From Alphaproteobacteria bacterium (GTDB lineage Bacteria; Pseudomonadota; Alphaproteobacteria; SHVV01), in assembly GCA_965261735.1 (NCBI GenBank), contig OZ253470.1, forward strand, positions 4,448,001 through 4,512,000: a DNA stretch of 64,000 nt, written 5' to 3'. Below, one piece after another: positions 4,503 to 56,500 of this stretch. Within the stretch, counting starts at the first letter, position 1. Each line of letters starts with the position of its first letter. The position numbers and the translations under genes are program-made. The notes under the pieces are model-generated. The model was given only the letters and a program-made list of their open reading frames with translations, made no database searches and was not told the DNA's origin.

Positions 4503-4948
4503 TCCGTTGGTCCGTTGTTTGGCGGCGAGATCAAGCGGCGGCGGGTCGACCTGCGCAACTGGTCGAACTGGCGCTGGCATCTTGATGAGGTGTCCGTCCG
4601 CATCAACGGCGAGCCACATTATCTATGGCGCTCGGTTGATCACGAAGGAGAGGTGCTCGAGGTCTTGCCACGAAACGGCGGGATCGCAGGGCTGCGCACA
4701 AGTTCCTGAGGCGCGCCATGAAACGTTATGGCCGGCTACAGTCCATCGTCACGGACAGGCTTCGGTTATATCGGGCGGCGTTGAAGGTGATCGGCAACGA
4801 GGTTTGTCAAGAGACCGGGCGTTGGCTCAACAATCGGGCCGAGAACTCGCACCAGCCGTTCAGACGACGAGAACGCGCAACGGCCAAATTCAGGGACGCA
4901 AAGACCCTGCAGAAATTCATTGCTGTCCATACCTCGATCCACAACCAA
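4503..4948 (+). pseudogene. IS6-family transposase internal fragment (frameshifted)
   Basis: RWHLDEV, LWRSVDHEGEVLE, IVTDRL, NNRAENSHQPFRRRER. Confidence 0.9.
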
Positions 4949-6274
4949 GACCGCCTGACCCGGTCCTTGGCCGACTTCGCACGCATGATCGAGATCTTCG
5001 ATCGCCGCCGGGTCAGCTTCGTCAGCGTCACCCAGGCCTTCAACACCACGACCAGCATGGGCCGCCTGACACTGAACGTGCTCTTGTCCTTCGCCCAGTT
5101 CGAGCGCGAGGTGACGGGCGAGCGCATCCGCGACAAGATCGCGGCCTCCAAGGCCAAGGGCATGTGGATGGGCGGCACTGTGCCGCTTGGCTACGACCCG
5201 CCTGGGGATGGCACGCGCGCCCTGGCGGTCAACCAGGAGGAGGCCGAGATCGTGCGCACCATCTTCCGAGCCTATATCGACCTCGGCTCGGTGCACGCGC
5301 TGCAGCGATGGCTTGAGGACCGGGGCATCCGTTCGAAGCGGCGGGTGACGCGGGCGGGTCGACTATCCGGCGGCCGACCGTTCAGCCGCGGCGCGCTCTT
5401 TCAACTGCTGCGCAACAGAGTCTATCGCGGCCTGATCGTCCACAAGGGGAGGGTGCATCCGGGCCGGCACCAGGCCATCATCGATGCCGATCTCTTCGAG
5501 GCTGTCCAGGCGCGCCTCGATGCGAACACTCGCCGTCGCGCATCGAAGCTGGAGCAGAAGTTGAATGCCCCTCTGGCCGGGCGCCTCTTCGATGCGGATG
5601 GTCGGCCGATGTCGCCGACCTTCTCCCACGGGAGAGGCGGCAAGCTCTATCGCTACTACGTCTCGGCACCGCTTCAGCAAGGTGCAAGGCGCGATCCGTC
5701 CGACACAGCCATCCGGCGTATCTCCGCACCATCGCTCGAAGTCGCCCTCGCGGCTGCGCTGCGTCGCGTGATCCCGGGATGTCCGGTTGATCCCATCACG
5801 CTTGTTGTCCGCGCCGAGCTCCACGATCAGTCGCTGCACTGCTTGCTGCCGATCGACCGGGTCGTCGCGATGCGCGAGCGCCTCGAGCCCCACGAACGGG
5901 TCGAGCCGGATCCAGTGGATGCGCGCCTCGCCAGGCTGCATCTGCCCCTGGTCCGGCGTCGCGGTCAGACCTGGGTTCTTAAGGGCCAAAGTCCGGGACA
6001 CATGCCGGACCCGGTTCTGGTCAGGGCGCTCCGCTCCGCTCACGCCATGCTGCACTATGACGATGACGGGCTGCCGGCACTCACTGCAGTACCCGATACG
6101 CCCCATCGACGCCGGCTCGTCCGCCTGGCCTTTCTGGCGCCAGAGATCCAGCGGGCGATCGTTGAAGGTCGCCAATCCGCAGGCCTGACACTGTCACGGC
6201 TCCTCAAGGGCCCGATGCCGCTCGACTGGTCGCAGCAAGCCGCCCGCTTCCCGTTTGCGGCATCGCCGGAATAG
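4949..6274 (+). pseudogene. Large serine recombinase lacking its catalytic N-terminus, fused in frame to the IS6 fragment (ORF 4718-6274)
   Basis: DRLTRSL..SFVSVTQAFNTTTSMGRLTLNVLLSFAQFEREVTGERIRDK; paralog of 48031-49776. Confidence 0.9.
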
Positions 6275-6464
6275 GGATCGGCACGGGAAAGTTTGTAAGG
6301 CATTGATATTACGGGAGGCTCTCGGTTTATTGGTTGGAAAACCCGCAATATTCTCCCTGTTTTGAGGCCGAAATCGCAAAAATTCCCTGTTTCCGCCAAA
6401 CTCACCCTTGCATCGCGCTCGCGGAGACCGCACACCGCGAAGCCCGGTAATTGCCGGAAATGCT

Positions 6465-6782
6465 CCCGCGTTCAGGAGCTGCGAATTCCGATTGACCGCG
6501 AAACAGGCCCTGTTTTCCGTGGGTTGGCCGCGCCATGCGATGAAGAGACTGCCTCGCCGGGGTGGCTGGCTGTGCAGGCAGTCTCCCGCGAACTCGTCTC
6601 TGAGGCCAATTCCCTGCTTAACAGGGAAAATACAGGGAAATTTTCTCTTTTGCAGGGATTCAGAAGCTTTCCTGTGTTTAAAACATGGCAGAAACGCTAG
6701 TGTTTTCGGTCCAATTCCCTAAACCATGTAACAGGGAATTTATTTGAACGAACAGGGATTTTGTTCGGGAGAACAGGGAATT
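6465..6782. repeat. Recombinase-associated att-like site with phased ACAGGGA repeats (copy 1)
   Basis: 6465-6570 matches 46826-46931; 6567-6640 matches 49892-49964; ACAGGGA at 6621, 6632, 6731, 6752, 6773. Confidence 0.8.
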
Positions 6783-6992
6783 CTACTGGTCCACGGCGGC
6801 AGCCGAAACATGACCGCGCCCGGCGCCGGCGCCGGGTCGATGTGGTTCATGAGTTGGCGGGAGCCTGAGGCCGCTTGGTTGTGGGTCTTGCAGGTCCGAC
6901 CCAGTTAGTCTGATGGTATGGACGCCCCCTACGGCTTCACGATGAGCCATACTGGAGTGTGTTGAACAACCCAGACAGAGGGAGCGTCCACG

Positions 6993-8012
6993 ATGGATAT
7001 TACGACAATTGGGTTTGATCTGGCAAAGACGGTGTTCCAGGTTCACGGTGCTGATGGTGAGGGACGACCGGTACTACGGCGGAAGCTGCGCCGCGGGAAG
7101 GTGCTGGCGTTCTTCGCCGGATTGCCATCCTGTCTTGTCGGTATGGAAGCCTGTGCCTCTGCGCACTATTGGGCTCGGGAACTGCAAGCACACGGGCACA
7201 AAGTTCAGCTGATTCCGCCTCAATACGTTCGTCCCTTCGTCAAAACGAATAAGAACGACGCAGCGGATGCGGAAGCGATCTGTGAGGCAGTGACGCGTCC
7301 GACGATGCGCTTTGCACCGGCGAAAAGCGCCGAGCAGCAGTCGGTTCTGATGCTGCACCGGGCCCGAGAGCTGTTGGTCCGTCAACGCACGATGGTGATC
7401 AATGCGCTGCGCGGCCACTGTGCGGAGTTCGGACTGATCGTCGCTCAGGGGGCGTCGAAGGTGGAGGAACTGGTTGCCATTATCGAAGATCCCGGCGATG
7501 TGCGACTGCCGCCTCTGGCACGCGAGGCGCTTGGCTCTCTGGTTGAGCAGCTCCGCTCTGCTCAGGCCCGGATCAAGCAGCTGGAAGTGACGCTTTTGGC
7601 ATGGCACCGCTCCAACGAGGCGAACCGCCGTCTTGCGACGATCCCCGGCGTCGGTGTCATCACCGCGACGGCGCTGGTCGCGACGATCGGAGATGGCGCG
7701 CAGTTTCGCTCGGGCCGGCAGCTCTCGGCCTGGCTCGGTCTCGTGCCCCGACAACACTCGAGTGGCGGCAAGGACAGGCTGGGGCGGATCTCGAAGCGCG
7801 GGGATGGCTATATCAGGCGCTTGCTCGTGCATGGTGCGCGAAGCGTGCTGCGCTGGCGCCGCGCCAAGCCGGGCACGGGGCCTGGCTGGACCGACCGGCT
7901 CCTGGCGCGGCGGCCGACAAACGTCGTGCTGGTCGCCATGGCCAATAAGACAGCCCGCGTCGCCTGGGCACTGCTCAGATACGAGCGTATCTACCGACCG
8001 ACGCCCGCCTGA
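6993..8012 (+). CDS. IS110-family DEDD recombinase/transposase
   Basis: IGFDLAK, GMEAC, KNDAADA, WLGLVPRQHSSGGK. Confidence 0.95.
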   Translation: MDITTIGFDLAKTVFQVHGADGEGRPVLRRKLRRGKVLAFFAGLPSCLVGMEACASAHYWARELQAHGHKVQLIPPQYVRPFVKTNKNDAADAEAICEAVTRPTMRFAPAKSAEQQSVLMLHRARELLVRQRTMVINALRGHCAEFGLIVAQGASKVEELVAIIEDPGDVRLPPLAREALGSLVEQLRSAQARIKQLEVTLLAWHRSNEANRRLATIPGVGVITATALVATIGDGAQFRSGRQLSAWLGLVPRQHSSGGKDRLGRISKRGDGYIRRLLVHGARSVLRWRRAKPGTGPGWTDRLLARRPTNVVLVAMANKTARVAWALLRYERIYRPTPA

Positions 8013-9254: not shown

Positions 9255-9519
9255 GCGGTTCTCCGCGCCCGGATTGCCGCACTTCAACCACCCGGACCCC
9301 CATGTGAGGGCGCCTCGACCGTCCGCCGGACTGCACCCGCCGGATCGTGTTTCCACGCGGTCATCGGTATGGGGTGCAGGCGCTGACTACGGTTTATGAG
9401 CGGCGAACGAACACTTCACCGCGCGGTCCGTCCGCTTTGCATCCATCGCGCACTCGGCGATGGAGGAGCCGTAGTTGTCCCAGATGTGGCGGCTCCAGCC
9501 GCCGCTCGGGTGGTGGGTC

Positions 9520-9640
9520 GCAGCGCCCAAGCATGACGCGCTTGTTGGGGGCCTTCCTGCCACCGTCGCCGGCGCGGTAGTTGACGATGTAGGACTTACG
9601 GCCCGAGGGATAAACACGGACGCCAAAGCCAGTATGCTCC
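9520..9640 (-). pseudogene. Tyrosine integrase arm-binding domain fragment
   Basis: GFGVRVYPSGRKSYIVNYRAG...KRVMLGR. Confidence 0.75.
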
Positions 9641-9649
9641 GCTCCCGAC

Positions 9650-9812
9650 GTGCTACGGCCCAAGGTCGTAATCGCCGCCTCGTAGGCCGCAAAGTAGCGC
9701 TCGGCATCATTCGCCGTGTGCGCGGCCTCCCCGAGCATGTCGAACGACGCGGCCGCGCGCGCCTGCTTGGCGCGGCCAAGGGCTTCCTCGATCGTGTGGC
9801 CGGAGACGATCC
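9650..9812 (-). pseudogene. putA: PutA proline dehydrogenase internal fragment
   Basis: GHTIEEALGRA...SFDMLGEAAHTANDAERYFAAYEAAI. Confidence 0.75.
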
Positions 9813-10003
9813 GCGAGAAATGTGCGGGGATCACGCCGTCCCGCTCTCCGCCGTCACCCTGGAGCTCGACTGGAAGATCGCGGTCCGGCTCGAAATGGTC
9901 GAGCGCGCAAGGGACATTATCGCGAGTGCGTACATGCTGGACTCCCTGGATCCCGCTCTGCCGACCGTATTGGCCGCCGTCATAGAAGGAAGAGGACTCT
10001 TCG

Positions 10004-10281
10004 AGCGGCACTTGCGGCAGCGCAGGACGCCAGGGCGGTTTTCAAAGTGGAACGGCTCTCCCGCCGTGCCGCAGTGCGGGCAGGCAAAGCCGTCTCCCCA
10101 GCGGGCTTTCTCCAGGTAGGCGGCGCAGGCCGCATCATCGGGGAAAAGTCGCTGGAACTCGGGTAGCGAATGCGGGAATGGGAGATCGGCGCGGTCGAGA
10201 ACATCCATGGCGCGCTCCCCTATATCCGGTTTGCGCCCATTCTAGCCCTAGTGGGTGTGGGTGTAAACCGGATAGGCAAGG
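10004..10281 (-). mobile_element. IS1595-family 5' fragment
   Basis: Near-identical to 4225-4502. Confidence 0.9.
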
Positions 10282-22126: not shown

Positions 22127-22929
22127 GGCATTGACACGTTAAGTCGGTGGCCGGATCGGGCAGGGGCCGCTACCGTCGGCGTATGACGCCAATTTCTTTC
22201 AAGCGACATCGTTTTTCGCCAGAGATCATCCAGCATGCGGTCTGGCTCTATGCTCGGTTCACGCTGTCATTTCGCGATGTCGAGGACCTGCTGGCCGAGC
22301 GCGGTATCGATGTCTCGAACGAGACGGTGCGACGCTGGTTTCTGAAATTCGGGCGCCTGATCTCAGGCAATCTTCGCCGCAGCCGTCCACGTGCCAGTGC
22401 TCGTTGGCACCTTGACGAAATGGTCATCAGGATCCGCGGCCGAAGACATTGGCTGTGGCGGGCGGTCGACGACGAAGGTGAAGTTCTCGACTTCCTGGTC
22501 CAGCCACGACGCTGCGCCCGATCGGCGCAGAGGTTGCTGCGGAAGCTGCTGAAGAAGCAGGGCTTTGCGCCGAAGCGCATTACCACGGACAAGCTCAAAT
22601 CCTACGCTGTTGCGATCCGCAAAGAGCGACTTACCGCTATTCACGATCAGGGATTGCGGGCGAACAATCGAGCCGAGAATTCACACCAGCCGGTACGTCG
22701 ACGCGAACGAAAACAACAGCGGTTCAATTCACCGGGATCCGCCCAACGGTTCCTTTCAATCCACGCCGCCGTCTACAACGCTTTCTACGTCCAGCGCCAT
22801 CTTTTACCCCGCCGCATTTTCAAGGCGTTTCGAGCCGAGACGTTCGCTGTCTGGAACCAAGGCTGGTGTGCTGCCTGATCCAGATCACGATCCAATTGTG
22901 CCGAACGCGGCAGTTAACGTGTCAATGCC
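22127..22929 (+). mobile_element. IS6-family element with intact transposase 22183-22878
   Basis: IRs GGCATTGACACGTTAA at both ends; FKRHRF, WHLDEM, NNRAENSHQP; no target duplication seen. Confidence 0.95.
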
Positions 22930-26256: not shown

Positions 26257-27062
26257 GGCATTGTCACGTTAACAGCGTGGCTTCGGCACGGCCGGTGCTT
26301 TAGCATCTCTGGATGTGCAAGATATCCTACCGTCGTCACCGCTTTCCACCGGTCATCATCCAGCATGCCGTCTGGCTCTATTGCCGTTTCACGCTGAGCT
26401 ATCGGGACGTTGATGACCTGCTTGCCGAGCGTGGTCTCGACATCTCGTATGAGACAGTTCGAAGATGGGTCTTGAAATTCGGTCGGGCCTATGCGCGGCG
26501 GATTCAACGTCGGCGGCCACGACCGACCGAACGCTGGCACCTGGACGAGATGGTCGTCGTAATTCGAGGGAGGCAGTTCTATCTCTGGCGTGCCGTGGAC
26601 AGTGAGGGCGAAGTCCTGGATTTCCTGGTTCAATCCCGCAGGAACGCTCGGGCGGCAATTCGGCTGATGCGGAAACTCTTGAAGAAGCAGGGCTTCGCGC
26701 CGGCGACGATTGTAACCGATAAACTCCGCTCCTACGGCACCGCGATCCGTTTGCTTGCCCTCTCGGCTCAGCATGAGCAAGGCCTGCGAAAGAACAATCG
26801 GGCAGAAAATTCACATCAGCCGGTGCGACGACGAGAGCGAAAGATGCAGCGGTTCAAATCGCCCGCGTCCGCGCAGCGGTTCCTCGCCGTCCATGCGACC
26901 GTCTACAACCTCTTCAACGTCCAACGCCATCTGGTCTCCCGCCGAACACTCCGCCAATTCCGCGGCGACGCGATGAGACAGTGGCGGCAAGTGACGACCG
27001 TTGCATAATCTCCGGCGTCGGCGCCCACAAGCTGGTTACACGGTGGTTAACGTGACAACGCC
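26257..27062 (+). mobile_element. IS6-family element with intact transposase 26313-27008
   Basis: IRs GGCATTGTCACGTTAAC / GTTAACGTGACAACGCC; DDE motifs. Confidence 0.95.
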
Positions 27063-40070: not shown

Positions 40071-40359
40071 CAATCCCAATACCGGCAACGCAGGGGCGAT
40101 TACGCCAACCCACACCTACAGATCGCCCGGCGGAATCTACCGCAGGGAATAACAGTTCACCGTGACCGCCGGCGGGCGCACCGAGCAAGCCCACGGCAGC
40201 GCCTGCCGCCAGCCCGACGGCTCGTGGCGGGTATCGAACCAGCACCGCACCCTCCCATGGTGACTTGCCTAGCGCAGTAACAGCGGCGATCGATTCAACT
40301 GTCCTTGCACGGTCCAGCCGTTCCGGCCCCATCCGGTTCCGTTACGCCGGCGAGAGCCA

Positions 40360-40447
40360 GAGCTTGAGCCGAAGGCGGGCGAGGGCGGATGCCGAAGAGG
40401 GTGTCCCCGCCCGGTTCCGCATTCACGCAATCCCGGAGACCGATATG
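40360..40447 (+). promoter_or_regulatory. Structured leader shared with 51558-51646
   Basis: GAGCTT..GGCGGGCG..GGATG..GAGGG..CCCCGCC..GGAGAC..ATG with 85-86 bp spacing in both. Confidence 0.45.
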
Positions 40448-42070
40448 CATGACCCCGAACGCGAAATCCGCGACATCCCGCTGTCCCAACTCGAACTCTC
40501 GCCCGGCAATGTGCGCAAGACGCCGGCCGATGATTCGGCCTTCACCGAGCTCAAGGCCTCGATCGCAGCCCACGGGTTGCTCGAGAACCTGATTGCCCGT
40601 TCCGTGAGACCCGGCGCGGATTGCGTCGCGCGCTACGCGGTGATCGCCGGCGGGAGGCGGCTTGCCGCGATGCAGGCGCTGGCCGCCGAAGGCGCGCTGG
40701 AAGAGGACCACCCCGTGCCGTGCCGAATGATCGGGGATATCGTGGCGGCCGAAGAAGTTTCGCTGGCCGAGAACAGTGTCCGCGCCGCGATGCACCCGGC
40801 CGATCAGGTCGAGGCGTTCCGCCGCCTGGCCGATGCGGGCAGCACGGCGGGCGCCATCGCGGCGCGCTTCGGGGTCTCGGAACGCACCGTGGAGAAACGC
40901 TTGCGGCTCGGCAACGCCGCACCGGTGCTGCTCGAGGCCTACCGAGCAGGCGAAATCGATCTGGACACATTGATGGCCTTCGCCGTCACCACAAATCAGG
41001 CACGCCAGAGCGCGGTCTGGGAGACGGTGAGCCAACAGGGCTACCGGCCTGGCGCCAGGCAGGTCAAGCGCCTGCTGACCGAGGACCGGGTTCCGGCCAC
41101 CTCCGCAATCGTGCGTTTCGTCGGCATCGAGGCTTACGAGGCGGCGGGCGGCAGGATCGACCGCGACCTGTTCGCCGAGGAGGACGAGCGAGGGATCTGG
41201 TTCGACGATCCTAACCTCTTGAACAAGCTCGCCATGGACAGCCTCCAGGTGGCGGCGAGGGAACTGGAGACGCGCTGGAAATGGGCCGAGGCGCGGCTCG
41301 ACGTGGACTGGAGCGCCACCGCGAGCTTTGGGCGGGTGCGTCCGCAACCGGCCGAGCCGACGGACGAGGAGAAGGCCGAGATCGAACGCTTGAGGACCCG
41401 CAACGACGGACTCGCCAACATGGACGACGACGGCTGGACCGAAGAATTGGTCGAGGAAGCCGATGCCAACGAGACGCGCCTGGACGAGATCGAAGCCACG
41501 ATCGAGGCCCGCGCGGTCTACCGTCGCGAGGATATCGCCATCGCCGGGTGCATCGCCACCGTCGGCAACGACGGCGAACTCAAACTGATCCAGGGCCTGG
41601 TCAGGCCCGAGGACATGCCCGCGCGCGAAGCAGGCGATGCGGCCGCGGCCGGGCACGCCGATACTGCCGATGGAGAGGAAAACACCATCTCCGGCATTGA
41701 TGCGCCCACATTCGTGGCTCCCCTCGCTTCTCCCGGCGATACGGAAGCCGAGGCGCGCAAGGAAGTGGGTGTAGGCATCGGTCTTGCCGACGATCTGCGG
41801 GCCATCCGCACGGCCATCGTCAAGAGTCAGCTCGCCTGCGACTTCGAGGTAGCCTTCGATCTGCTGCTGTTCCAGCTTGCCCGCAGCGTGTTCACCAACG
41901 GCTACCATGATGCCGCACTCGATATCAGGGCGGCCGAAACACCGGACCGTCCCGCCATGCGGGTCAACGACGATGCTTTCGGCACCATCAATGTCGGTGA
42001 GAAGCACCTCGAGATCGACCGTGCCGCGCAAAAGCTCGATTGGACCGGCCTGCCCGAAGTCGAGGCCTTC
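40445..42070 (+). pseudogene. Plasmid/ICE-type ParB/Spo0J-family protein, C-terminally truncated (ORF runs on to 42271)
   Basis: NVRKT, ASIAAHGLLENL, VIAGGRRLAA, SLAEN..R..MHPADQ, HTH; reads as unrelated sequence after VEAFAA. Confidence 0.82.
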
Positions 42071-42218
42071 GCCGCGGCGTCGCCGGGATGCAATTTCGGA
42101 AGACTCCTGACGCGGGTCGCGGGCGCACTTCTGCGACGACGCAGTAGGGTCCAGGACAATGCGCGGCGGGTCGACGGAATCGGTTGTCGTCCCCGGGCCG
42201 CGATCGTCTCGAGAGGGA

Positions 42219-43838
42219 TCAAATCCTCCCGTCGTAGGATCGCGGACCGATCTCGGCGGCGAGTATCGTGAAAGTGTCCCGGACCAGCGCCGCCGCCATC
42301 TCCCGTGCAAGGGTTTCGCGGTCGCGAACCCAAACGCCCTCGCCGCCGAGCGCTTCAGCGACGGCCGGAAAATCGGTAGCGCCGAAGTTCACGGCGAGAG
42401 CGGGAAGTTGCGAGCTGCGCTGCTTCATCTCGATCAGGCCAAGCTGGGTGTCGACGAAGACGACAATGGGGATGGCCAGCTTCAGGTCGCGGACCGTGGC
42501 AAGTTCGCCCAGGAACATCTCCAGGCCGGCATCGCCCACGGTCGCGACGACCGCGCGTTCGGGCTCCGCCAGCTTGCGGCCGATGGCGAGCGGAACCGCG
42601 CATCCCATCGTGCAGAGCGCGGAAGACTGCAGGAGGCCCCGGGGACGGTAGCATTCGTAGAGTTGGCTGAGGACGATCCGGTGGGCGCCGCTGTCGGTCG
42701 TGACCACGGCGTCGCGGGGCAGCGACCTGCGCAGCACGTCGACGACCGCCGCCGGGCCCCAGTCCTCGTCGATGCGGCTTTCCGCCCGAAGCGCCGACCT
42801 GACCGAAGCCGGCTCTTTCGACGGCCAGGTCTCGCGCGGCGTTACACCCCTGCCCAGCGCTTCGAGGCCGGCGCCGGCGTCGCCCGGGAACACGAGGGAA
42901 GCCCTGTGCATTCCATGACGATCGACGACCGCCGGAAGATCGATCGCACGGGCCCCTTCCGGCCAGGGGTCGCGCCAGCCGCTTCGCATCTCGATCGGAT
43001 CGTATCCGGCAAGGACGATACAGTCCGATGCTGCCACCAGAGGCAGAAGCCGCGTGTCGACCCGTGGGCTCAGCCCGGCGGCGCCGAGGGCGAGAGGATC
43101 GTCTTCGGACAACACGCCCTTCGCCTTGTAGGTTGTGATCAGGGGCACGCGGAATCGGTGGCAGAACGCCGCGACGGCTGCCTCCGCGCGCTGGGTCAGA
43201 ACATCGAGACCGGCGATCATGAGCGGGCGGCCCGCTTCCGCGAGCCACGCGCGGGCCGTATCCAGCGCTGCGCCGCGGGCCGGGGCCGTCGGCGCGGCGG
43301 CAGCGCCCGGGACCGGCAGCGCCGCGGGCTGTTCGCGGGTCTGCACGTCGATCGGGATGTCGAGGAGCACCGGGCCCGGCCGCCCTTCCGTCGCAATGGC
43401 AACTGCCTTGTCGGCGAGGATGGCGGCCATCCCGTCCTCGACGCGATACGCCGCCTTGGCGATCGGCTCCACCAGCTTGACGTGGTCGAACACCTGGTGG
43501 GTGTAGCTGTGCCGTTCGCCCGGGGAAACGCAACCCGTCAGGACCACCATCGGCACGCGGTCCTGGAAGGCGTTGGCGATGACGTTCACGGCGTTGGCGA
43601 TGCCCGGGCCGATAGTGGCCAGCAGGATTGCCGGGGCGAGATCGCGGTGATGGACGCCTTCGCCCATGAAGCCGGCGCAATTCTCGTGCTTAGCGAGCAC
43701 CACCCCGATGCCGGCCCGTTCGAGTGCGTCCATGATGGCGAGCACTTCTCCGCCGGGAATGCCGAATGCGTAGCGGCAGCCGGCCGCGGCGAGGCGTCGG
43801 GCGATCAGGTCTGCGGAACTGGGCAGGGCAATGCTCAC
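42219..43838 (-). CDS. Thiamine-pyrophosphate-binding enzyme (acetolactate synthase-like)
   Basis: FGIPGGE, KHENCAGFM, TIGPG, GRPGPV, TMGCAVP, GDAG; probable GTG start at 43838. Confidence 0.92.
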   Translation of the reverse strand: MSIALPSSADLIARRLAAAGCRYAFGIPGGEVLAIMDALERAGIGVVLAKHENCAGFMGEGVHHRDLAPAILLATIGPGIANAVNVIANAFQDRVPMVVLTGCVSPGERHSYTHQVFDHVKLVEPIAKAAYRVEDGMAAILADKAVAIATEGRPGPVLLDIPIDVQTREQPAALPVPGAAAAPTAPARGAALDTARAWLAEAGRPLMIAGLDVLTQRAEAAVAAFCHRFRVPLITTYKAKGVLSEDDPLALGAAGLSPRVDTRLLPLVAASDCIVLAGYDPIEMRSGWRDPWPEGARAIDLPAVVDRHGMHRASLVFPGDAGAGLEALGRGVTPRETWPSKEPASVRSALRAESRIDEDWGPAAVVDVLRRSLPRDAVVTTDSGAHRIVLSQLYECYRPRGLLQSSALCTMGCAVPLAIGRKLAEPERAVVATVGDAGLEMFLGELATVRDLKLAIPIVVFVDTQLGLIEMKQRSSQLPALAVNFGATDFPAVAEALGGEGVWVRDRETLAREMAAALVRDTFTILAAEIGPRSYDGRI

Positions 43839-46587: not shown

Positions 46588-46824
46588 TCAGCCGCCGGAC
46601 CGTGTCTCCGCGACAATTTCCTTCATCCGGGCGCCGTCGATGGCGCCCGGAACCAGGGTGTCTCCGATCACGAATGCAGGTGTCCCCCGGATGCCGAGTG
46701 TCTTGGCCAACCGCACTGTTTCTTGCAGATATTTCTCTATGGCCGGATCCTTCATGTCCCGGCGAAGTTGCTCGATGTTCAACCCGAGTTTCTCAGCAAC
46801 GCCTATCACACCGGCTTCGGTCAA
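46588..46824 (-). pseudogene. DsbA-family protein C-terminal fragment
   Basis: LAKTLGIRGTPAFVIGD..VPGA; CxxC half absent. Confidence 0.78.
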
Positions 46825-46927
46825 TCCCGCGTTCGGGAGCTCCGGATTGAGATTGACCGCGAAACAGGCCCTGTTTTCCGTGGCTTGGCCGCGCCATGCG
46901 ATGAAGAGACAGCTGCGCCGGGGTGGC

Positions 46928-46952
46928 TGGCGGAGTGGATGGGATTCGAACC
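46928..46952 (-). other. tRNA 3'-end-like sequence GGTTCGAATCCCATCCACTCCGCCA (att-like; not an intact tRNA)
   Basis: T-arm plus acceptor strand ending GCCA; no 5' half seen. Confidence 0.7.
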
Positions 46953-47198
46953 AACGCTATGCTTTGCGTACCGCCTTGTTTTTTCGGAGTGTTTTCAGCA
47001 CTTTAGGCTCTGAGAAATCCGCGCCAAACGAGCTCTTTGTACTGGATTTCTGCGCGCAAGGAAGCGGTACTGTCGTCAGGTCGAGGAACGGGACAGGCCC
47101 CGCTCTCCACCCGCCCGGACCGGGGTTCATAATCCCTACCGGGCTTGGGGTGGTGGGAGGCCGCGCAAGGGGCGCGGCCGGAGACGGAGGACCGCCCT

Positions 47199-47495
47199 AT
47201 GACCAAACGAACCCCGAACAAAACGCGCCCGCGCACCCGTGCGGAGAAGAAGAGCGCCGCGACGAGCGCTCAGGAATCGGATGCGGCCAGACGCCCCAGC
47301 GGCAAGCTCGGCCTGATCGTGGACCGGCTCGAACGAACGGCCGGAGCGACGATCGACGAACTTGTCGATGCGACGGGCTGGCAGAAACATTCGGTCCACG
47401 GCGCTCTGAGCCGGCTCAGGTCAGCGGGCTTCGCCATTCGTCTGGAATTGACGGTGGGACGGAAGGCCTATCGGCTCGCACCGGCCGAGGCGTAA
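47199..47495 (+). CDS. DUF3489-family small (HTH-like) protein
   Basis: GATIDELVDATGWQKHSVHGALS..YRL; RBS GGAGG. Confidence 0.85.
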   Translation: MTKRTPNKTRPRTRAEKKSAATSAQESDAARRPSGKLGLIVDRLERTAGATIDELVDATGWQKHSVHGALSRLRSAGFAIRLELTVGRKAYRLAPAEA

Positions 47496-47498
47496 GCC

Positions 47499-48038
47499 AT
47501 GTCAGTTACGGAAATCCACACTATAGAAAGCCCGACGCGCGTAGACGGCGCGCCAGGTGACGCGGGCTGCGAAGACGCAGTGGCTGCCAAGCTTCGGGCT
47601 CTCGAGGGTATGACCTACGACGGATTGCGCGTCGAATGGCGGCGGCTTTACCGCGCCCAACCGCCGAAGCGGGTGGCGCGCGGTCTGCTCGTGCTTGGTG
47701 TCGCCTGGAAGATTCAGGAGCAGGCCTATGGCGGCCTTGGCGCAGCCACCAAGCGGCGCCTCGCCGATCTGGCGAAGACCATGGAACAGGACGGCGACCT
47801 CGCCCGGAGTCGTGTTGCGCGGCTGAAACCCGGGGCGAGGCTGGTGCGTGAATGGCGCGGCCAAACCCACACGGTGATCGTTCTCGAAGACGGGTTCGAA
47901 TGGCAGGGCAAACGATGGCGATCGCTGTCGGTGATCGCCCGCGAGATCACCGACGCTCACTGGTCCGGCCCGCGCTTTTTTGGTCTGAACGGGAAAGCGG
48001 AGGCAGGCGTCGCGATCGGGGAGGCGGGCGATGGGTAA
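47499..48038 (+). CDS. DUF2924-family protein
   Basis: AWKIQEQAYGGL, LKPGARLVREWRG..H.V, SLSVIAREIT..HWSGPRFFGL. Confidence 0.9.
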   Translation: MSVTEIHTIESPTRVDGAPGDAGCEDAVAAKLRALEGMTYDGLRVEWRRLYRAQPPKRVARGLLVLGVAWKIQEQAYGGLGAATKRRLADLAKTMEQDGDLARSRVARLKPGARLVREWRGQTHTVIVLEDGFEWQGKRWRSLSVIAREITDAHWSGPRFFGLNGKAEAGVAIGEAGDG

Positions 48039-49776
48039 ATCCACGACTCGCAAGGGGACGAACGGCAAGGCATTAATCCGCTGCGCCATCTACACTCGGA
48101 AATCATCGGAGGACGGCCTCGAGCAGGACTTCAACTCGCTCGATGCCCAGCGGGAATCCTGCGAAGCCTTTATCCTCAGTCAGAAGCACGAGGGCTGGAC
48201 CGCGCTGCCCGAGATGTACGATGACGGCGGCCTCTCCGGCGGCACCCTTGAGAGACCCGCCCTGAAACGGATTCTTGCGGATATCGAGGCCCACCGGATC
48301 GACACTGTGGTCGTCTACAAGGTGGATCGACTGACACGCTCGCTCGGTGACTTCGCCAAGATCGTGGAAATCTTCGACAAGCGGAACGTGTCCTTCGTCT
48401 CGGTGACCCAGCAGTTTAACACCACGACATCGATGGGGAGGTTGACCCTCAACATGCTGCTCTCCTTCGCCCAGTTCGAGCGCGAGGTCACCGGCGAACG
48501 CATCCGCGACAAGATCGCGGCTTCGAAGAAGAAGGGCATGTGGATGGGCGGCAACGTGTCCCTCGGCTATGTGGTGAAGGACCGGAAACTTCTGATCGAC
48601 GAGGCGGAGGCCAAGACGGTCCGACATATCTACCGGCGATACGCCACGCTCGGCTCGGTCTGGACCCTCAAGGAGGAGCTTGACCGCGATGGCGTGGTCA
48701 GCAAAGTGCGGGTCGACAGGTGCGGGCGTGCGACCGGCGGAAACCCGCTTGCCCGTGGTGCGCTCTATACGATGCTGCAGAACCGCATCTACCGTGGCCG
48801 GATCGTCCACAAGGACAAGCACTATCCGGGCGAGCATGAGGCGATCGTCGACGAGGCGCTCTGGGACGAGGTGCAGCGGCAACTGGCGGCCAACCAAATC
48901 GACCGCGCGACCGGCACTCATGCCGCGGAGCCGAGCCTTCTAGCGGGGTTGATTTACGACGACAGCGGCCAGCGCATGACGCCGAGCCACGCCAACAAGA
49001 AGGGGACGCGCTACCGCTATTACGTGTCGCAAGCCCTGGTCAGCGAAATCCGGCGTTCCGCGCCGAGAGCTCGACGGGTCCCGGCAAGTGATGTCGAGCG
49101 GTTGGGACAAGAACGGCTTACGGTCTTCTTAAAAAGCCAGGGTGAAATCTTCGACGCTGTCGAACCGCTTTTTGATGATGTGAACAGAAGGCAGGAGGTT
49201 GTCGACCTGGCCGCGGACCTTGCCGCCCGCTGGCCGGACCTGGAGCCGGCGACGAAACGCCAGATATTCGAACGTCTCGTCAGTCGGATCAACCTTACGC
49301 AGGAAACACTTGAAATCCGGATTGCACCGAGCCGGTTGCTGGAGATTCTTTGGGAAGAGGACAACCCAAAAACCTTCGAGCCAGCTTTGTGGGACAACGA
49401 GCTGACCGTAACCTTCACGGTTCCGGCGCATCTTAAGCGCGCCGGAATGGAGACCAGACTTCTGATCGAAGGCGCGGACGGCAGCGCACGAAAATCCCCG
49501 GATCGCAGTCTGCTCAGACTTTTGAGCCAGGCGCAGCGCTTCCACGAAATGGTGCTGCACAACCGGGGCAGGACGATGACGGAGCTTGCCATCGAGGCGA
49601 GCGTCGGTGGGTCTTACTTCACCCGGATCCTGCGGCTCAGCTTCCTCGCGCCGGAGGTCGTGAAGACCATCCTCCGGGACCGCCATCCGCTCGAGCTGAC
49701 CGCGAACAAGCTTGCAGGCGACACGCGCCTGCCAATCGCATGGGAAGAACAGCGCGCCCGGTTCGGGATCGCCTGA
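48031..49776 (+). CDS. Large serine recombinase (intact)
   Basis: CAIYTRKSS catalytic motif, SLDAQ, DDGGLSG, RPAL, VDRLTRS, recombinase domain, YRYYVS. Confidence 0.95.
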   Translation: MGKSTTRKGTNGKALIRCAIYTRKSSEDGLEQDFNSLDAQRESCEAFILSQKHEGWTALPEMYDDGGLSGGTLERPALKRILADIEAHRIDTVVVYKVDRLTRSLGDFAKIVEIFDKRNVSFVSVTQQFNTTTSMGRLTLNMLLSFAQFEREVTGERIRDKIAASKKKGMWMGGNVSLGYVVKDRKLLIDEAEAKTVRHIYRRYATLGSVWTLKEELDRDGVVSKVRVDRCGRATGGNPLARGALYTMLQNRIYRGRIVHKDKHYPGEHEAIVDEALWDEVQRQLAANQIDRATGTHAAEPSLLAGLIYDDSGQRMTPSHANKKGTRYRYYVSQALVSEIRRSAPRARRVPASDVERLGQERLTVFLKSQGEIFDAVEPLFDDVNRRQEVVDLAADLAARWPDLEPATKRQIFERLVSRINLTQETLEIRIAPSRLLEILWEEDNPKTFEPALWDNELTVTFTVPAHLKRAGMETRLLIEGADGSARKSPDRSLLRLLSQAQRFHEMVLHNRGRTMTELAIEASVGGSYFTRILRLSFLAPEVVKTILRDRHPLELTANKLAGDTRLPIAWEEQRARFGIA

Positions 49777-49891
49777 GCCAGGGTCTCGGCCACGACGGAA
49801 AGGCGTATCGGGCGCAACCCCCGGAAGTTTCGGGACAAGTTCGAATCCATCCAGCGTCCTGAATAAACATTATATAACAATGACTTAAGTG

Positions 49892-50125
49892 TGGCGGAGG
49901 ACGCAGTCTGCTGCGAACCTGTCTCTGCGCCAATTCCCTGTTAAACAGGGAAAATACAGGGAATTATTGCAGATTCGACCTTAAATCGGCGGGAGTGGGC
50001 CGTCTAAGGCGTTGATATCATAGGGAATCGAGACCCAATTCCCTACGCCACGGAACAGGGAATTATTATTGGCCTAACAGGGAATTTTCCAGGGTGAACA
50101 GGGAAATTCACTCGCCGAACAGGGA
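49892..50125. repeat. Recombinase-associated att-like site with phased ACAGGGA repeats (copy 2)
   Basis: ACAGGGA at 49945, 49956, 50055, 50077, 50098, 50119; inverted AATTCCCT copies at ~49932 and ~50037. Confidence 0.8.
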
Positions 50126-50158
50126 GCCGTCAACCTTGAACATCTATTCCTCCTTTGC

Positions 50159-50892
50159 TCAGCAGCCACGCGGCACCACGCTTTGCGATCCGCGCAGGCC
50201 GAGATCCGTATAACGCCAAGCGAGTTCGAGCGTCGTGTCGTCGTCCAGAGATGTCGCGATCCCAGCCGTCAGCATCCAGGCGAGGTTGACCCGACGCCCG
50301 CCCGGAACGATGGTCGTCGTCCTCGGAAACGCCATGCGGGTTTCTCCAATCTCGACCCGGACGGCTCCAGCGCCACCTCCGAGAAACGGGCTGAAACGGC
50401 CCAGCCTCGGCACGCCCAGTTCCGGCAAGTCCACGTAAGCGGCCAGCATGCCCGACAAGGAGGAGAGGTTCGCCGAGACCGACTGCTGGCGCGCGGGCTC
50501 CAGGAAATTGGCGCGTCCGAAGGCGAAGCGCGGCCGGTATTCGACCAGGGCTTCGACCCGCGCGGCGCGCGTGAGTATATGGCCGATCCCGAACTCAACG
50601 CCGGCCACCGTCCCGAAATCGCCTAGCGAACGCAGGGCCGCACCGTCGCCGCCCGTGCCGCAGCCATACAGCGCCGCCGGAGAAACGCTCGAACAATCCT
50701 TGTCCATGAACCGGGTCTCGGCGGGGCGGTCGAAACCGATCCCGGCTCGCAGATAGACGTCGTCCGCGATCCCGACCCCCGGGACCATGGTTGCCGCGAT
50801 ACCGATCAGGGCCGCAGCCAAGTGGAGCCATTTCACCCGCGACGGCACCGTGCATGCCGGCATGGCAACTGGAGAGCCGGTACCGTCTTTCA
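50159..50892 (-). pseudogene. Outer-membrane beta-barrel (opacity/Omp-type) protein, last strand missing
   Basis: Signal peptide; YLRAGIG, YVDL, PFLGGGAG, AWMLTAG, LAWRYTDLG, then unrelated tail without terminal Phe. Confidence 0.7.
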
Positions 50893-52429: not shown

Positions 52430-52662
52430 GTACGGTGCACGACTTCGACCAGCCCTGGAGGAGAGACACGATCCCCGCCCTCGAAATCGCCGACTGCATC
52501 AACGAAACCCGCCCCTGGTCGGGGAAGCCGGTGCAGCCGAACTCGCTGACCGAGTATAACGGCGAGGTCGTGGGGTTCTGCAATAGCGGGTACCGCGACA
52601 CGTTAGAGACGGGGCTCCGCCACTTCGAGAAGGCGAGGGCGTCTCGAAGGGCTCACGAATGA
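52430..52662 (+). pseudogene. YHS-like C-terminal fragment
   Basis: INET.PWSGKPV...SLTEYNG.VVGFCN.G.RD. Confidence 0.5.
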
Positions 52663-53504
52663 CCTGCCGGTCAGCTGAGCGCGGCACGCGGCGGAGCTCG
52701 TCGCGGATCCTTGCCTTCTCGGTCATGCTCCCCGCCCTCACGTTCGCCGGCTCCGCATCCGCCGAGACCTGGCGCGGCCTCACCGTGACGCCCGAGCACC
52801 GCTGTTCGCCCTACGAGAGGAAGCGGGACTACCCCTATTCGCAGTCGGTGGAGCAGGACATCGTCCGGCAACTCGGGGTGATCTACGGTCCCTACACGGG
52901 GAAGTGCTTCTCCTCCACCACTGAGACCGACATCGAGCACATCGTCGCGACGAGCGAGGCACACGACTCGGGACTCTGCGCCGCGGATCGGGCCACACGA
53001 AAGCAGTTCGCCCAGGACCTTCGCAACCTCACGCTCGCCTCCCCGGAGGTGAACCGCCGGCAGAAGAGCGGCAACGACGCCGGTGAATGGGTCCCGGGCA
53101 GGAACCGGTGCTGGTTCGCCGGAAGGGTGCTCCAGGTGAAGCGCGCCTACGGGCTCACCGTGGATCGGCGAGAGGCCGCGGCGCTCGAACGCATCCTTCA
53201 GGGCTGCGCGAGCACCGCGATGGAGCCCATGGTGTGCCGGGCGGCGCCGACACCGGCAGGAGATACCGGACGGGGCGCTGGTGGGGACGACGTGCTCGCT
53301 CGCTACGACAACAACCGGAACGGCAGGATCACGTGCAAGGAGGCGCGCCGGCACGGGATCGCACCCGTCCACCGGTCGCACCCCGCGTACCGGTACATGC
53401 GCGATGGTGACGGGGACGGGGTCGTATGCGGCAGATCCCTCCTCAACGCGCGTTCGGGGGACTCCCGAACTCGCTGCTATTGGTTGGTTGCAAAAGGTAG
53501 CTAA
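52659..53504 (+). CDS. Secreted HNH (DUF1524-like) nuclease with EF-hand/Excalibur Ca-binding tail
   Basis: Signal peptide; DIEHIVA..EAHDSG, NLTLA...NR.QKS, DNNRNGRITC, DGDGDGVVC. Confidence 0.75.
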   Translation: MTCRSAERGTRRSSSRILAFSVMLPALTFAGSASAETWRGLTVTPEHRCSPYERKRDYPYSQSVEQDIVRQLGVIYGPYTGKCFSSTTETDIEHIVATSEAHDSGLCAADRATRKQFAQDLRNLTLASPEVNRRQKSGNDAGEWVPGRNRCWFAGRVLQVKRAYGLTVDRREAAALERILQGCASTAMEPMVCRAAPTPAGDTGRGAGGDDVLARYDNNRNGRITCKEARRHGIAPVHRSHPAYRYMRDGDGDGVVCGRSLLNARSGDSRTRCYWLVAKGS

Positions 53505-56500
53505 CCGAACAGGCCTACGCCTGATGAATCCCCTCGCGCGCGGGTACCTTAATACGGCCGGATGCGAATTGCCTCGGGAGACACGGATGCGCGCGGATGC
53601 GCGCGTCAAATACTGGAACTGTTGCCCAGGCGCTTACGGCCACCGTCGTTCGAGCGCCGGAACACCGCGCTCGTACGTCGAGGATCAGGCGCGCGGCGAC
53701 CGGTGCTGGCCGTTACGCGAAGATACGTGACGCGAAGGATGCGAAGTGAGGTAATCAACGGGCGAGGTGCCCCTGTTTCGGTTGCGCCGGCGCAGCTCGA
53801 GGGCCTGGGGGCTTGGTACAGGAGAGTCGGGGGTATCCCACATGCAGTTTGTGCGGGGAGGTCCAGATGTTTCCGAGCGCCTGTTGCAGGCGCACGAAGA
53901 AGGCCGTGTCGTCTTCTTCTGTGGCGCTGGAATCTCCTATCCGGCTCGCTTGCCAGGATTTGCCGGGCTGGTGGACGAACTTTATTCCCGCTTGGAGATC
54001 ATCCCGGATCCGGTGCAAGCGGCAGCCATCAAATCCAAGCGTTATGACACGGCCGTGGGTTTGCTGGAGGCGAACTTCGTGGGAGGTCGCCAAGCCGTGC
54101 GCCAGAAGATCGCGGAGATCCTCGATCCGGACATTTCTGCCCCCATTGCGACTGCCACGCACGACGCACTGCTGACTCTGGCGGAATGCCGCGAGCGTCG
54201 CACCCGGCTGATCACGACCAACTTCGACCGGCTATTCGAGCATGTCATCGCGAACGGTCGACCTGCTGCGGAACGATTCGAAGCCCCGTTGCTGCCCGTC
54301 CCAAAGCAACGCTGGGATGGATTGGTGTACCTCCACGGCCTGCTTCCTGAAGACCCCGCCGACAACAACCTGGACAATCTGGTGGTCTCAAGCGGCGATT
54401 TCGGCCTTGCCTACCTCACGGAGCGTTGGGCGGCGCGCTTCGTCAGCGAGCTGCTTCGGAACTTCGTCGTGTGCTTTGTCGGCTATAGTATCGACGACCC
54501 CGTTTTGCGCTACATGATGGATGCCTTGGCGGCGGACCGTCTGCTCGGCGAATGGCCGCCCGAAATGTTTGCGTTCGGGAGCTTTTCCAAGCGCGAGGAG
54601 GAGGCGCGTGCGAACGAATGGCGCGCCAAGAACGTCACGCCCATCCTTTATCGGGAACATCGGCGTCACGCCTACCTGCACAGAACCCTCCGCACCTGGG
54701 CCGACACCTACCGCGATGGTGCACGTGGAAAGGAGCGGATCGTCGTCGAATACGCCATGGCGCGCCCGGACACGGCCACCAGTCAGGATGACTTTGTCAG
54801 CCGCATGTTATGGGCCCTGAGCGATTCAAAGGGCCTTCCCGCTATGCGGTTCGCGGACCTGAATCCGGTGCCTGGCCTCGATTGGCTCGAACCGCTCGGT
54901 GAGGACCGTTTCGGGCACGCCGACCTGGTCCGCTTCGGCGTTCCGCCCAAGGCGAGTGCGGACGAGAAACTCGCGTTCAGCCTGATTCGCAGACCCTCAC
55001 CCTACGACTTGGCTCCGCAGATGGCACTCGCGAATTGGGGTGCGCAGGAGGGCCGCCTTGACAGGGTGATGTGGCAGCTGACTCGCTGGTTGAACCGCCA
55101 TCTTGGCAACCCTGCGCTGCTCCTCTGGCTGGTCAAGCAAGGAGGGAAGCTACACGCAGAATTTGCGGACCGGATAGCCTATCGTTTGGATGAGCTGGCC
55201 CGGCTCGAGGATCGCGAATGCGGCGAGGAATTGGACCGCATCCGCAAGGATTCGCCTGACGCGATCCCAGACAAGCGGATGCGCACGCTTTGGGGCCTTG
55301 TGCTAGCTGATCGAGTGAAGAGGCTCGGACCAGACCTCGATCTTCATCGATGGCGGGGCCGCTTCGAGAGAGACGGCCTGACAACGACCTTGCGGCTGGA
55401 ACTGCGTGACTTGCTCAGCCCGCGCGTGTCATTGCGGGCGCCCTTCCGATGGCCCTTTGACGAGGATGAGGATTACGAAGAACAAGGGCGGATGCGACAG
55501 CTCGTTGACTGGGAGATCATGCTCTCGGCAAGCCACGTGCATGGGGATCTGCGCGAGCTGGCGGGTAACGAGAATTGGGCGACCGCCTTGCCGACGCTGC
55601 TCACTGAGTTCACCAGATTGCTTCAGGATGCGCTGGATCTCATGCACGAGCTTGGCGGGGCGGAGGACAAGAGCGATTTGTCATACGTGAGCCAACCATC
55701 AATCGGTGAGCACGCTCAGAATTCGTCTTTCCGAGATTGGACCGCCTTGATCGAGCTGAACCGTGACGCTTGGAGGGCCGCGGCTGCCGTGTCGCCAGAC
55801 CAGGCGCGACTCGTGGCGGGAGCCTGGTCGCTGCTACCCTACCCTCTGTTCCGCCGACTGGCATTTTTTGCAGCCGCGCAGCTCGACATCGTTCCTCGAA
55901 GTCAGGGACTCGGGTGGCTGCTGGCCGACGACAATTGGTGGCTTTGGTCGGTGGAGACCCAGCGAGAAACCATGCGGCTGCTGGTCGCCCTGGCTCCGGA
56001 ACTCGCTGAAGACGAGCTGGCCACACTCGAGGGTGCGATTCTCGCGGGTCCGCCCGCGACATGTACAGGCCCGATATCGAAGAAGAACGCTGGACGCGGA
56101 TGCAGGAAAGCAGTGTCTGGCTGCGGCTGGCCAAGGTCAGCCGGAGCGGGTCGGAACTGAGTGCCGCCGCCCGGGGCCGGCTGGACGAGATTTCGGCCAA
56201 GTACCCGGATTGGCGGCTGGCTGCGAATGAACGCGACGAGTTTCCGACCTGGACCGGCGACCCGGGAGAGTTGCGCGTTCACGTCGCCTCGCCCCGCGAC
56301 CAAAATGGACTAATCCAATGGCTGCGCGACAATCCCGAGCCGGACGATTGGCGGCCCGACGACTGGCACGAGCGCTGCCGCGACGATTTCGATGAGGCTG
56401 CGTCGGCACTGGCTGCATTGGCAGCGGACGGAACATGGCCGAGCGGTCGGTGGCGCGAAGCACTTCAGCGGTGGTCGGAGGACGAGCTGCGGGAACGCTC

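Follow-up and report, generated by a model that had tools for sequence, protein, structure and literature searches.

The stretch analysed here (the window) comprises 64,000 nucleotides from an Alphaproteobacteria bacterium of the GTDB lineage SHVV01 (assembly GCA_965261735.1, contig OZ253470.1, positions 4,448,001 to 4,512,000 of the forward strand). It carries at 46928-49899 a 3-kb element, hereafter the unit, composed of genes for a DUF3489 protein, a DUF2924 protein and a large serine recombinase (LSR). The unit is probably a complete, cargo-free integrative element whose LSR recombines at the TGG(C) that encodes the CCA end of tRNA-Ser genes. The genome is a single 5.03-Mb contig without N, in which four more copies or fragments of the unit were found at 97-98% identity; the window copy is named copy A. 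The core of the unit is the 3' end of a tRNA-Ser gene, and tRNA genes are the native targets of the family. This central point was overlooked by the original prediction, which had described the unit as inserted in the conserved empty site of a sister element and whose reading of the locus is partly supported.

The unit and its junctions with tRNA-Ser genes

The features of the unit and its immediate flanks, all on the plus strand, are as follows.

46825-46931, plus strand: X', what is left (107 bp) of a sister LSR unit's recombinase-proximal (P) arm; it ends ...GGTGGC-TGGC
46928-46935, plus strand: left core TGGCGGAG, which is the tRNA-Ser 3' end CTCCGCCA in reverse complement
46928-47198, plus strand: the unit's distal (P') arm, whose first 25 nt are TGGCGGAGTGGATGGGATTCGAACC; not a tRNA gene
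47199-47495, plus strand: DUF3489 gene, 98 amino acids (aa) from ATG, in an open reading frame (ORF) that opens at TTG 47145; Pfam E 3.5e-12
47499-48038, plus strand: DUF2924 gene, 179 aa; Pfam E 2.1e-48
48031-49776, plus strand: LSR gene, 581 aa, intact; Pfam Resolvase domain at residues 19-171 (E 5e-38) and Recombinase domain at residues 191-287 (E 1.5e-12)
49777-49899, plus strand: the unit's P arm, ending ...TATAACAATGACTTAAGTG-TGGCGGAG; right core at 49892-49899
49892-50189, plus strand: Y', a P' arm of the distal type from a sister-type element; its core TGGCGGAGGAC is Ser-like and precedes 6-7 copies of ACAGGGAA; homology to other copies ends near 50189

The three co-oriented genes form one operon, with a 3-nt gap between the first two and a start/stop overlap, ATGGGTAA, between the second and the third. 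Direct repeats of TGGCGGAG (46928-46935 and 49892-49899) bound the unit, with 2,964 bp in between, as had been proposed. The bare octamer shows no enrichment across the window (6 matches, 4.5 expected; 28 of 100 shuffles contained at least 6). What gives it weight is its position, exactly on both homology breakpoints, and not its frequency. These breakpoints are defined by a second locus of the window, site 1. There, X (6464-6570) is 92% like X' over 107 nt by repeat search (BLAST E 1.9e-36), and Y, starting at 6567, is homologous to Y', with 90% identity between 6605-6644 and 49929-49968 in the repeat search and 84% between 49892-49963 and 6567-6639 in BLAST. At site 1, X and Y are contiguous and uninterrupted, as originally described. 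The 7 nt after TGGC are TGTGCAG at site 1 and GGAGGAC in the site rebuilt from the flanks of the unit, the two sites being of equal length. The description of the unit as a discrete, cargo-free, three-gene element bounded by repeats is also supported, and the genome has four further copies and fragments of it.

The other copies show what these ends are. Copy B (genome 1883168-1880007, minus strand, 98% identity) ends ...CTTAAGTG followed by TGGCGGAG, where an intact tRNA-Ser(CGA) gene has its 3' end, and copy C (genome 482242-484946, 98%) has the same octamer junction with an intact tRNA-Ser(GCT) gene. Copy D has its 3' side cut off, while at locus F only the last 74 bp of the unit are left, joined to a copy of Y'. 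The recombinase frame is free of stops in copies A, B and C. At the other end of the unit, 23 of the 25 nt of TGGCGGAGTGGATGGGATTCGAACC are those of the reverse-complemented tRNA-Ser(CGA) 3' end. The P' arm thus copies the end of a tRNA-Ser gene, so that the right half of the rebuilt attachment site of the element (attP) imitates its target.

Every junction in the genome shares TGGC and diverges right after it. The partners of X at TGGC are a tRNA-Gln gene, two types of Y and the P' arm of the unit, and those of the unit's P arm are the two tRNA-Ser genes or Y'. Comparison of the junctions bounds the putative crossover to TGGC or TGGCGG, in support of the crossover region TGGC(GGAG) that had been predicted. 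In the circular form, attP would read ...TATAACAATGACTTAAGTG / TGGCGGAG / TGGATGGGATTCGAACC..., its right (P') half imitating tRNA-Ser acceptor/T-arm DNA. Given this mimicry, integration would leave the tRNA gene whole beside the recombinase end of the unit and a tRNA-like stub at the far end. Since every inserted unit carries such a stub, units of the family would end up head to tail.

Three further serine and glutamine tRNA genes of the genome are unoccupied: tRNA-Ser(GGA) at 1783138-1783228, tRNA-Ser(TGA) at 4839683-4839772 and tRNA-Gln(TTG) at 2797610-2797685. They are candidates for natural empty target sites (attB).

tRNA association in the recombinase family

A scan of one genome per species gave at least 595 relatives among 600 matched stretches, in several phyla, and the best 80 loci were examined. 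tRNA genes were counted at 66 of these 80, namely those with at least 600 bp after the recombinase stop. At 40 of the 66 loci, no more than 500 bp separate the recombinase stop from the 3' end of a convergent tRNA gene (median 261.5 bp), and these genes comprise 24 tRNA-Ser, 13 tRNA-Gln, 2 tRNA-Ala and 1 tRNA-Met. A tRNA gene on the same strand lies within the same interval at only one of the 66 loci. When the genomes of relatives were inspected, a tRNA gene was present on the 3' side of the recombinase at 6 of 10 loci.

The identity of the tRNA follows the recombinase clades. All four other members of the clade of the window enzyme (SH-aLRT 100) adjoin tRNA-Ser genes in a quick maximum-likelihood tree of 41 recombinases. 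In the same tree, the five tRNA-Gln-adjacent proteins all fall in one clade (SH-aLRT 100) with no Ser-adjacent member. The recombinase-proximal arms share a common motif, TAT(A/C)AA..(C/T)TTA... followed by TGG, at a fixed distance from the core. The core itself is TGGC for Ser and Gln and TGGT for Met and Ala, the common denominator being TGG, the CCA end.

Other genomes contain minimal units, 2.7-3.4 kb long, with a tRNA gene at one end and a tRNA-like repeat at the other (loci L031, L051, L073, L076, L079 and L089). In a search of 4-kb flanks, a distal tRNA-like repeat scored 22-28 of 32, against a background of 16-19, for 6 of 45 tRNA/locus pairs. Among loci with no tRNA gene close by, the conserved P arm is followed by a tRNA-like stub, the end of another unit, in 11 of 27. 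Several loci (L040, L044, L076 and L081) have two recombinase matches on one strand about 3 kb apart. The gene order is also conserved: DUF2924 lies directly upstream of the recombinase at 67 of the 69 loci with enough flank, and DUF3489 was found by tblastn in at least 38 of the 69, a lower bound because the protein is short and divergent.

Several observations weigh against the proposed integration at tRNA ends. The window contains no tRNA gene according to ARAGORN, thus copy A adjoins none, and this copy is also without 184 bp that follow 49789 in copies B and C. The survey found no tRNA gene within 500 bp at 26 of its 66 loci. Copies B and D have left-junction cores (TGTCAGAG and ATGCTGAG, respectively) that, together with the next 9 nt, are unlike those of copy A; beyond about 17 nt beside the left core, the three copies are 97-98% identical over more than 100 nt. 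With such variable left cores, a simple single attP is insufficient as an explanation. The first 29 nt of tRNA-Ser(GGA) equal those of the occupied tRNA-Ser(CGA), yet this gene is unoccupied. As read from the sequence, dyad symmetry is nearly absent from the att half-sites, an uncommon trait in this class of enzyme, and no zinc ribbon was found in the recombinase (no Pfam match at E <= 0.001 and no CxxC pairs in the translation). Finally, the Logan contigs of four public runs contain neither a back-joining contig for the predicted circle junction nor an unambiguous empty site. As contigs lose rare forms, the absence of a circle contig is uninformative about activity. Several public runs have contigs that hold 50-60% of the words of the unit, indicating that related strains have been sequenced repeatedly, and contig joints in runs X7 and X10 correspond to the contiguous X-Y junction of site 1. 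No empty site was found among 40 relatives searched, none of which belongs to the same genus, and near-identical sister elements were detected only in G002, a genome of another genus.

In runs X2, X7 and X10, which come from other strains, contigs show the 184-bp segment as loose ends at 49788/49789. GGTCTC repeats lie on both sides of the deletion at 49789. The unit's own arms hold no 7-mer in three or more copies. The possibility that the left end is itself a tRNA or another RNA gene was discarded, since ARAGORN reported no genes and Rfam gave no family in the window at gathering score; a relaxed Rfam scan returned chance-level matches only (sX4, 15 bits, E 0.6).

Sister elements and the history of the locus

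Six sister loci were found that carry DUF2924 and a recombinase with 45% protein identity to that of the unit, and where the DUF3489 gene is also present. The sister features of site 1, and the array sites shared with the unit locus, are listed below.

4718-6274, plus strand: sister recombinase LSR-A, its N-terminus replaced by a fragment of an IS6/IS240 insertion sequence (IS)
6275-6570, plus strand: sister P arm, with TCCCTGTT repeats, then X (6464-6570), ending TGGC
6567-6912, plus strand: Y, whose Gln-like core TGGCTGTGCAG precedes 5-6 copies of ACAGGGAA; an IS110-family element interrupts it after about 345 bp
6993-8012: IS110 transposase (Pfam match)
6275-6912 and 49892-50130 in the window, and 229, 418, 459, 1973, 4294, 4362 and 4401 kb in the genome: sites of ACAGGGAA/TCCCTGTT arrays

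The LSR-A gene, which the original prediction called recombinase 1, is real and N-terminally truncated. Residues 3-77 of its chimeric ORF match IS240/IS6 transposase, only positions 70-145 of the Resolvase profile remain, and it has 92% nucleotide identity to an intact sister at genome 4399777-4401112.

X proved to be the last 107 bp of the recombinase-proximal arm of the sister, and X' shares 97% identity by BLAST with the copies of X at genome positions 4401417 and 4361545. In locus E, an intact tRNA-Gln(CTG) gene follows X at ...GGTGGC/TGGC. The element at this locus is shared with G002, where it occupies the same tRNA with 96.5% identity over 5,751 bp while the chromosomal flanks differ; X is therefore the end of an element and not chromosome. 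Y can be read as the distal, tRNA-mimicking arm of sister-type elements, with its tRNA-like core and ACAGGGAA arrays, and the X-Y junction as attP-like or as a tandem junction. The proposal that X-Y is a plain conserved empty site thus does not hold. Nor does this genome contain an uninterrupted X'-Y' with a Ser-type core, all three copies of Y' coming after the ends of other elements. The other two Y' copies, 98% identical, are at genome 1973545-1973175 and 459436-459235, and a variant core, TGGCGGTGGAC, is found in two copies.

Between 4 and 7 copies of ACAGGGAA are present in Y and Y', and 2 to 6 inverted copies (TCCCTGTT) lie between the sister recombinase stop and X. The 5-Mb genome has nine ACAGGGAA clusters, all at sister-core sites. 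These arrays look like arm-type binding sites. In every copy of Y, both here and in G002, an IS110 element, a repeat resembling a miniature inverted-repeat transposable element (MITE) or an IS630 element interrupts the sequence after about 230-345 bp.

The locus E element (L119, genome 228984-234607; L116 in G002) is 5.6 kb long and carries as cargo a ParB_N-N6_N4 DNA methylase gene and two DUF5681 genes. Its right end is of the tRNA-Gln type and its left end of the tRNA-Met type, with a 45-nt 3' fragment of tRNA-Met(CAT). A hairpin at the left end resembles the flank of the real tRNA-Met gene at 3403231-3403307.

In the window, the unit lies between the P arm of a tRNA-Gln-type sister (X') and the tRNA-mimicking distal arm (Y') of a further sister-type element, with both junctions at TGGC, and the window would thus hold a fragment of a tandem array later cut up by IS elements. 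Two histories may account for this structure. According to the first, the one originally proposed, a contiguous X'-Y' already existed and was used as a pseudo-attB, Y' replacing the tRNA-Ser half-site. Five contiguous X-Y junctions do exist in the genome, and the rebuilt X'-Y' has the length of X-Y, from which only the 7 nt after TGGC differ. Y' starts with TGGCGGAGG as tRNA-Ser does and has CGAACC further along, although past 9 nt it fits tRNA-Ser poorly and its CGAACC is shifted by 3 nt. The five X-Y loci in turn collapse to at most two or three independent events, because site 1 and locus S2 (0.42 Mb) share the IS110 insertion, and in none of the junctions of this genome is X followed by Y' with a Ser-type core; all three copies of Y' follow non-X arms. 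One contig of run X1 joins 46927 to 49892 and skips 2,964 bp (at depth 16, with 74 nt on its shorter side and 4 nt ambiguous). However, it was placed at 90% likeness and could equally represent a paralogous X-Y of the S1 or S5 type (97% and 92% alike). We regard this history as a real possibility, a little short of an even chance.

The second history is a stepwise accretion, in which the sister unit, the unit and a Y'-type element each integrated in turn beside a real tRNA-Ser gene, every new arrival displacing those before it outward, and a later IS rearrangement removed the tRNA and most of its neighbours. It uses the tRNA genes that are the native targets of the family, and junctions of a P arm with a tRNA-like stub, as well as tandem recombinases, are found in other genomes. 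Y-type arms occur behind at least four P arms, namely X, that of the unit, the arm at genome 459 kb and that of a tRNA-Met-type recombinase in G002, and X', Y' and all their neighbours are cut by IS elements or MITEs. On the other hand, accretion requires that a tRNA-Gln-type sister (X') integrated at a tRNA-Ser site, no remnant of a tRNA-Ser gene lies within the window, and more events are needed. Both histories give an identical structure and we rate them about equal, so that accretion too is a serious candidate that falls somewhat short of probable. The idea that members of the family build tandem islands thus finds support in the related units lying end to end in other genomes, while insertion of one into the end of another is not separable from stepwise accretion. 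Under either history, the action of this recombinase family on tRNA-like sites produced the junctions of the locus.

It is unlikely that the unit is instead a serine transposon like IS607 or TnpX, with loose target choice. A cargo-free element of 3 kb with at least four copies in one genome and with left-junction cores that vary among copies would suit such a transposon, but the informative right junctions are all at TGGCGG, the targets surveyed (66 loci) are tRNA 3' ends and comprise a few isotypes in step with the recombinase phylogeny, and the NCBIfam IS607 transposase model is matched weakly, at 24.9 bits where the cut-off is 110. An origin without site-specific recombination, as a patchwork of IS-mediated or homologous rearrangements or as an assembly chimera in a repeat-rich region, is very improbable: the window is rich in transposase genes and fragments, the unit, X and Y are all multi-copy and no Logan contig was shown to span the junction of X' with the unit, but both breakpoints fall on one octamer, precisely the one at which two other copies meet tRNA-Ser genes, every copy of X has TGGC at its junction, and the assembly is one contig without N.

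Proteins, related systems and neighbouring genes

The sole recombinase of the unit is of the serine type and not a tyrosine integrase. It matches the integrase family phrog_95 (E 3e-95) and contains a YTRKSS motif, in which R23, K24 and S25 are invariant or nearly so among 41 sequences. Its relatives in the PDB and NCBIfam include the catalytic domain of the TP901-1 integrase (E 1.6e-23), the phiC31 integrase, YokA/SprA and CcrB. A clade-specific C-terminal domain, at about residues 459-580, matches phrog_14161 ("recombinase"), a separate phage protein family.

This additional domain is where DUF2924 is predicted to bind. The predicted complex of the recombinase with DUF2924 scored 0.74, against 0.00 for the best of three controls. 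As a rough guide, with alignments made by ourselves, 0.74 is reached by 58 of 80 solved complexes and by 2 of 110 mismatched pairs. Between runs, at least 67% of the contacts recur, and the partner has a predicted local distance difference test (pLDDT) of at least 66. The interface joins recombinase residues 495-572 with DUF2924 residues 25-96 and includes the family-invariant L539, P541 and W571 of the recombinase and Q73 of DUF2924. The model supports binding of DUF2924 to the C-terminal domain of the recombinase.

The AlphaFold2 (AF2) model of DUF2924 (pLDDT 76.8) has a helical N-domain and a small C-terminal beta domain. In VIA-align, the beta domain resembles MPND (7ydt, Z 6.1, 61 aligned residues, 25% identity) and the C-terminal DNA-binding domain of CcrM (6pbd_B, Z 6.0), values near the Z of 6 that the tool calls possibly common. 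Weak Pfam RAMA matches, below the Pfam cut-off, were obtained for 15 of 39 DUF2924 family members (best E 0.0021), and a passage of PMC11342252 notes a partial match of RAMA, a DNA-binding domain, to DUF2924. Since a Z of about 6 can be common, the assignment of a RAMA-like fold rests on these three agreeing weak lines. No Foldseek match to the PDB was found for DUF2924 at E <= 0.001, and a PDB sequence profile search gave only E > 0.2. According to these models, DUF2924 would dock with its helical N-domain on the extra C-terminal domain of the recombinase and add a RAMA-type DNA-binding domain.

DUF3489 consists of a basic disordered tail and a winged helix-turn-helix (AF2 pLDDT 77, with H-H-H-beta hairpin topology). 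Its Foldseek matches are winged helix-turn-helix proteins of the ArsR/SmtB, MarR and IclR types (probability about 1, E 0.01-0.07), none from the PDB reaching E <= 0.001. The fold suggests a winged-helix DNA binder that may act as a regulator or directionality factor. The fold predictions and the predicted complex of DUF2924 with the recombinase make both small proteins plausible accessory factors, as had been proposed.

The unit shares with known LSRs (TP901-1, phiC31, Bxb1, SPbeta SprA and the Ccr proteins of SCCmec) the resolvase catalytic and recombinase domains and a short bounding repeat. Well-studied serine integrases use short, quasi-symmetric sites in non-tRNA loci. The unit differs from those systems in its target, a tRNA 3' end, in an attP half that imitates the target and in the extra C-terminal domain, the predicted holder of DUF2924. 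It also differs in that no zinc ribbon was picked up by Pfam and in having two co-transcribed small proteins as near-obligate neighbours.

The closest described cases belong to phages. In the Acidithiobacillus caldus prophage AcaML1, the gene order of Gp5-Gp2 is that of the unit, with 46% identity to the recombinase (residues 13-431) and 38% to DUF2924; the text covered describes no mechanism for this module. AcaML1 is a 59-kb phage, whereas the unit is 3 kb and free of cargo, and its recombinase is annotated as "large" and "small" subunits, of which the small one appears to equal the C-terminal domain described here. Table 2 of PMC3826726 lists its attB as "srrA", with 10-bp direct repeats. 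We read "srrA" as the tmRNA gene, whose 3' end is tRNA-like. The recombinase of Wolbachia phage WO is 33% identical across nearly the whole length; a DUF2924 gene directly upstream of it is mentioned in a section of PMC10299305. Unlike the 3-kb unit, this recombinase belongs to a large phage, and the text covered mentions no tRNA targeting for it. Paracoccus phage vB_PamS_Pami6, from an alphaproteobacterium, has a serine recombinase and a predicted integration in a tRNA-Met gene, according to an excerpt of PMC6536676. It is a full phage, likened to the unit by description only. As far as these sources go, AcaML1 and Pami6 are single cases that fit the tRNA-end pattern.

Tyrosine integrases are the usual enzymes of tRNA-targeting elements. 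Islands inserted by such integrases in tRNA or tmRNA genes, such as tycheposons and tandem arrays, share with the unit the tRNA 3' target, a distal tRNA fragment and tandem accretion. The unit belongs to another catalytic family and is far smaller. With its crossover at the CCA end, no part of the tRNA would need restoring, unlike in tyrosine-integrase islands. A minority of tycheposon-like elements carry a large serine recombinase, as stated in part of a preprint (bioRxiv 10.1101/2020.12.28.424599). In the portions of full-text literature covered, DUF2924 appears only in three Wolbachia papers, none of them mechanistic, and DUF3489 in one paper, likewise without a mechanism. Clade-wide targeting of tRNA ends, the tRNA-mimicking arm, cargo-free 3-kb units and a role for DUF2924 were not described in the literature searched; supplements and island databases lie outside that search.

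A broader scheme, which we put forward as speculative and rather doubtful, would make DUF2924 the obligate second subunit of a distinct class of serine integrases. Its RAMA domain, with or without the winged helix of DUF3489, would read the acceptor/T-arm DNA of the tRNA gene, so that crossover takes place at the CCA-encoding triplet despite almost asymmetric att sites. The tRNA-like distal arm of each unit would be a new landing pad and lead to self-extending arrays of 3-kb cargo-free units, and the inverted ACAGGGAA arrays of the sister lineage would be arm-type sites of a lambda-like complex attP.

Serine integrases are prized as simple, cofactor-free tools for genome engineering, and their natural targets are idiosyncratic. 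A widespread LSR clade that targets tRNA 3' ends, which are universally conserved, would, if confirmed, offer ready-made landing sites in many bacteria, and would show a serine recombinase reaching a class of targets that is mostly the domain of tyrosine integrases. For DUF2924, a domain of unknown function, the place of near-obligate partner provides a function that can be tested, and the tRNA-mimicking end offers a concrete growth mechanism for tandem island arrays. For annotation, it may account for tRNA-like stubs and for the repeated 3-kb triplets with a "recombinase family protein" in IS-rich genomes.

Several neighbours of the array were also noted. A truncated C-terminal DsbA fragment (46588-46824, minus strand, an ORF of 78 aa, Pfam DSBA) ends exactly where X' begins, which suggests that X' is the stub of a further rearrangement. 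To the right of the array, 52659-56160 encodes a GmrSD_C/Excalibur protein (281 aa) followed by a 797-aa protein with a SIR2_2 domain, a possible defence pair. A 668-aa protein with a ParB N-terminal domain and a helix-turn-helix (40265-42271) lies among IS fragments and may be the remnant of a larger mobile element. The ORF at 9394-10011 (minus strand) combines a proline-dehydrogenase fragment with a fragment of Arm-DNA-bind_3, the N-terminus of a tyrosine integrase, and is probably a fusion of gene remnants. IS6-type transposase genes are also present at 22147-22878 and 26313-27008. The IS load of the genome is extreme, with more than 35 near-identical copies of a 1.1-kb element and about a dozen of a 1.06-kb element.

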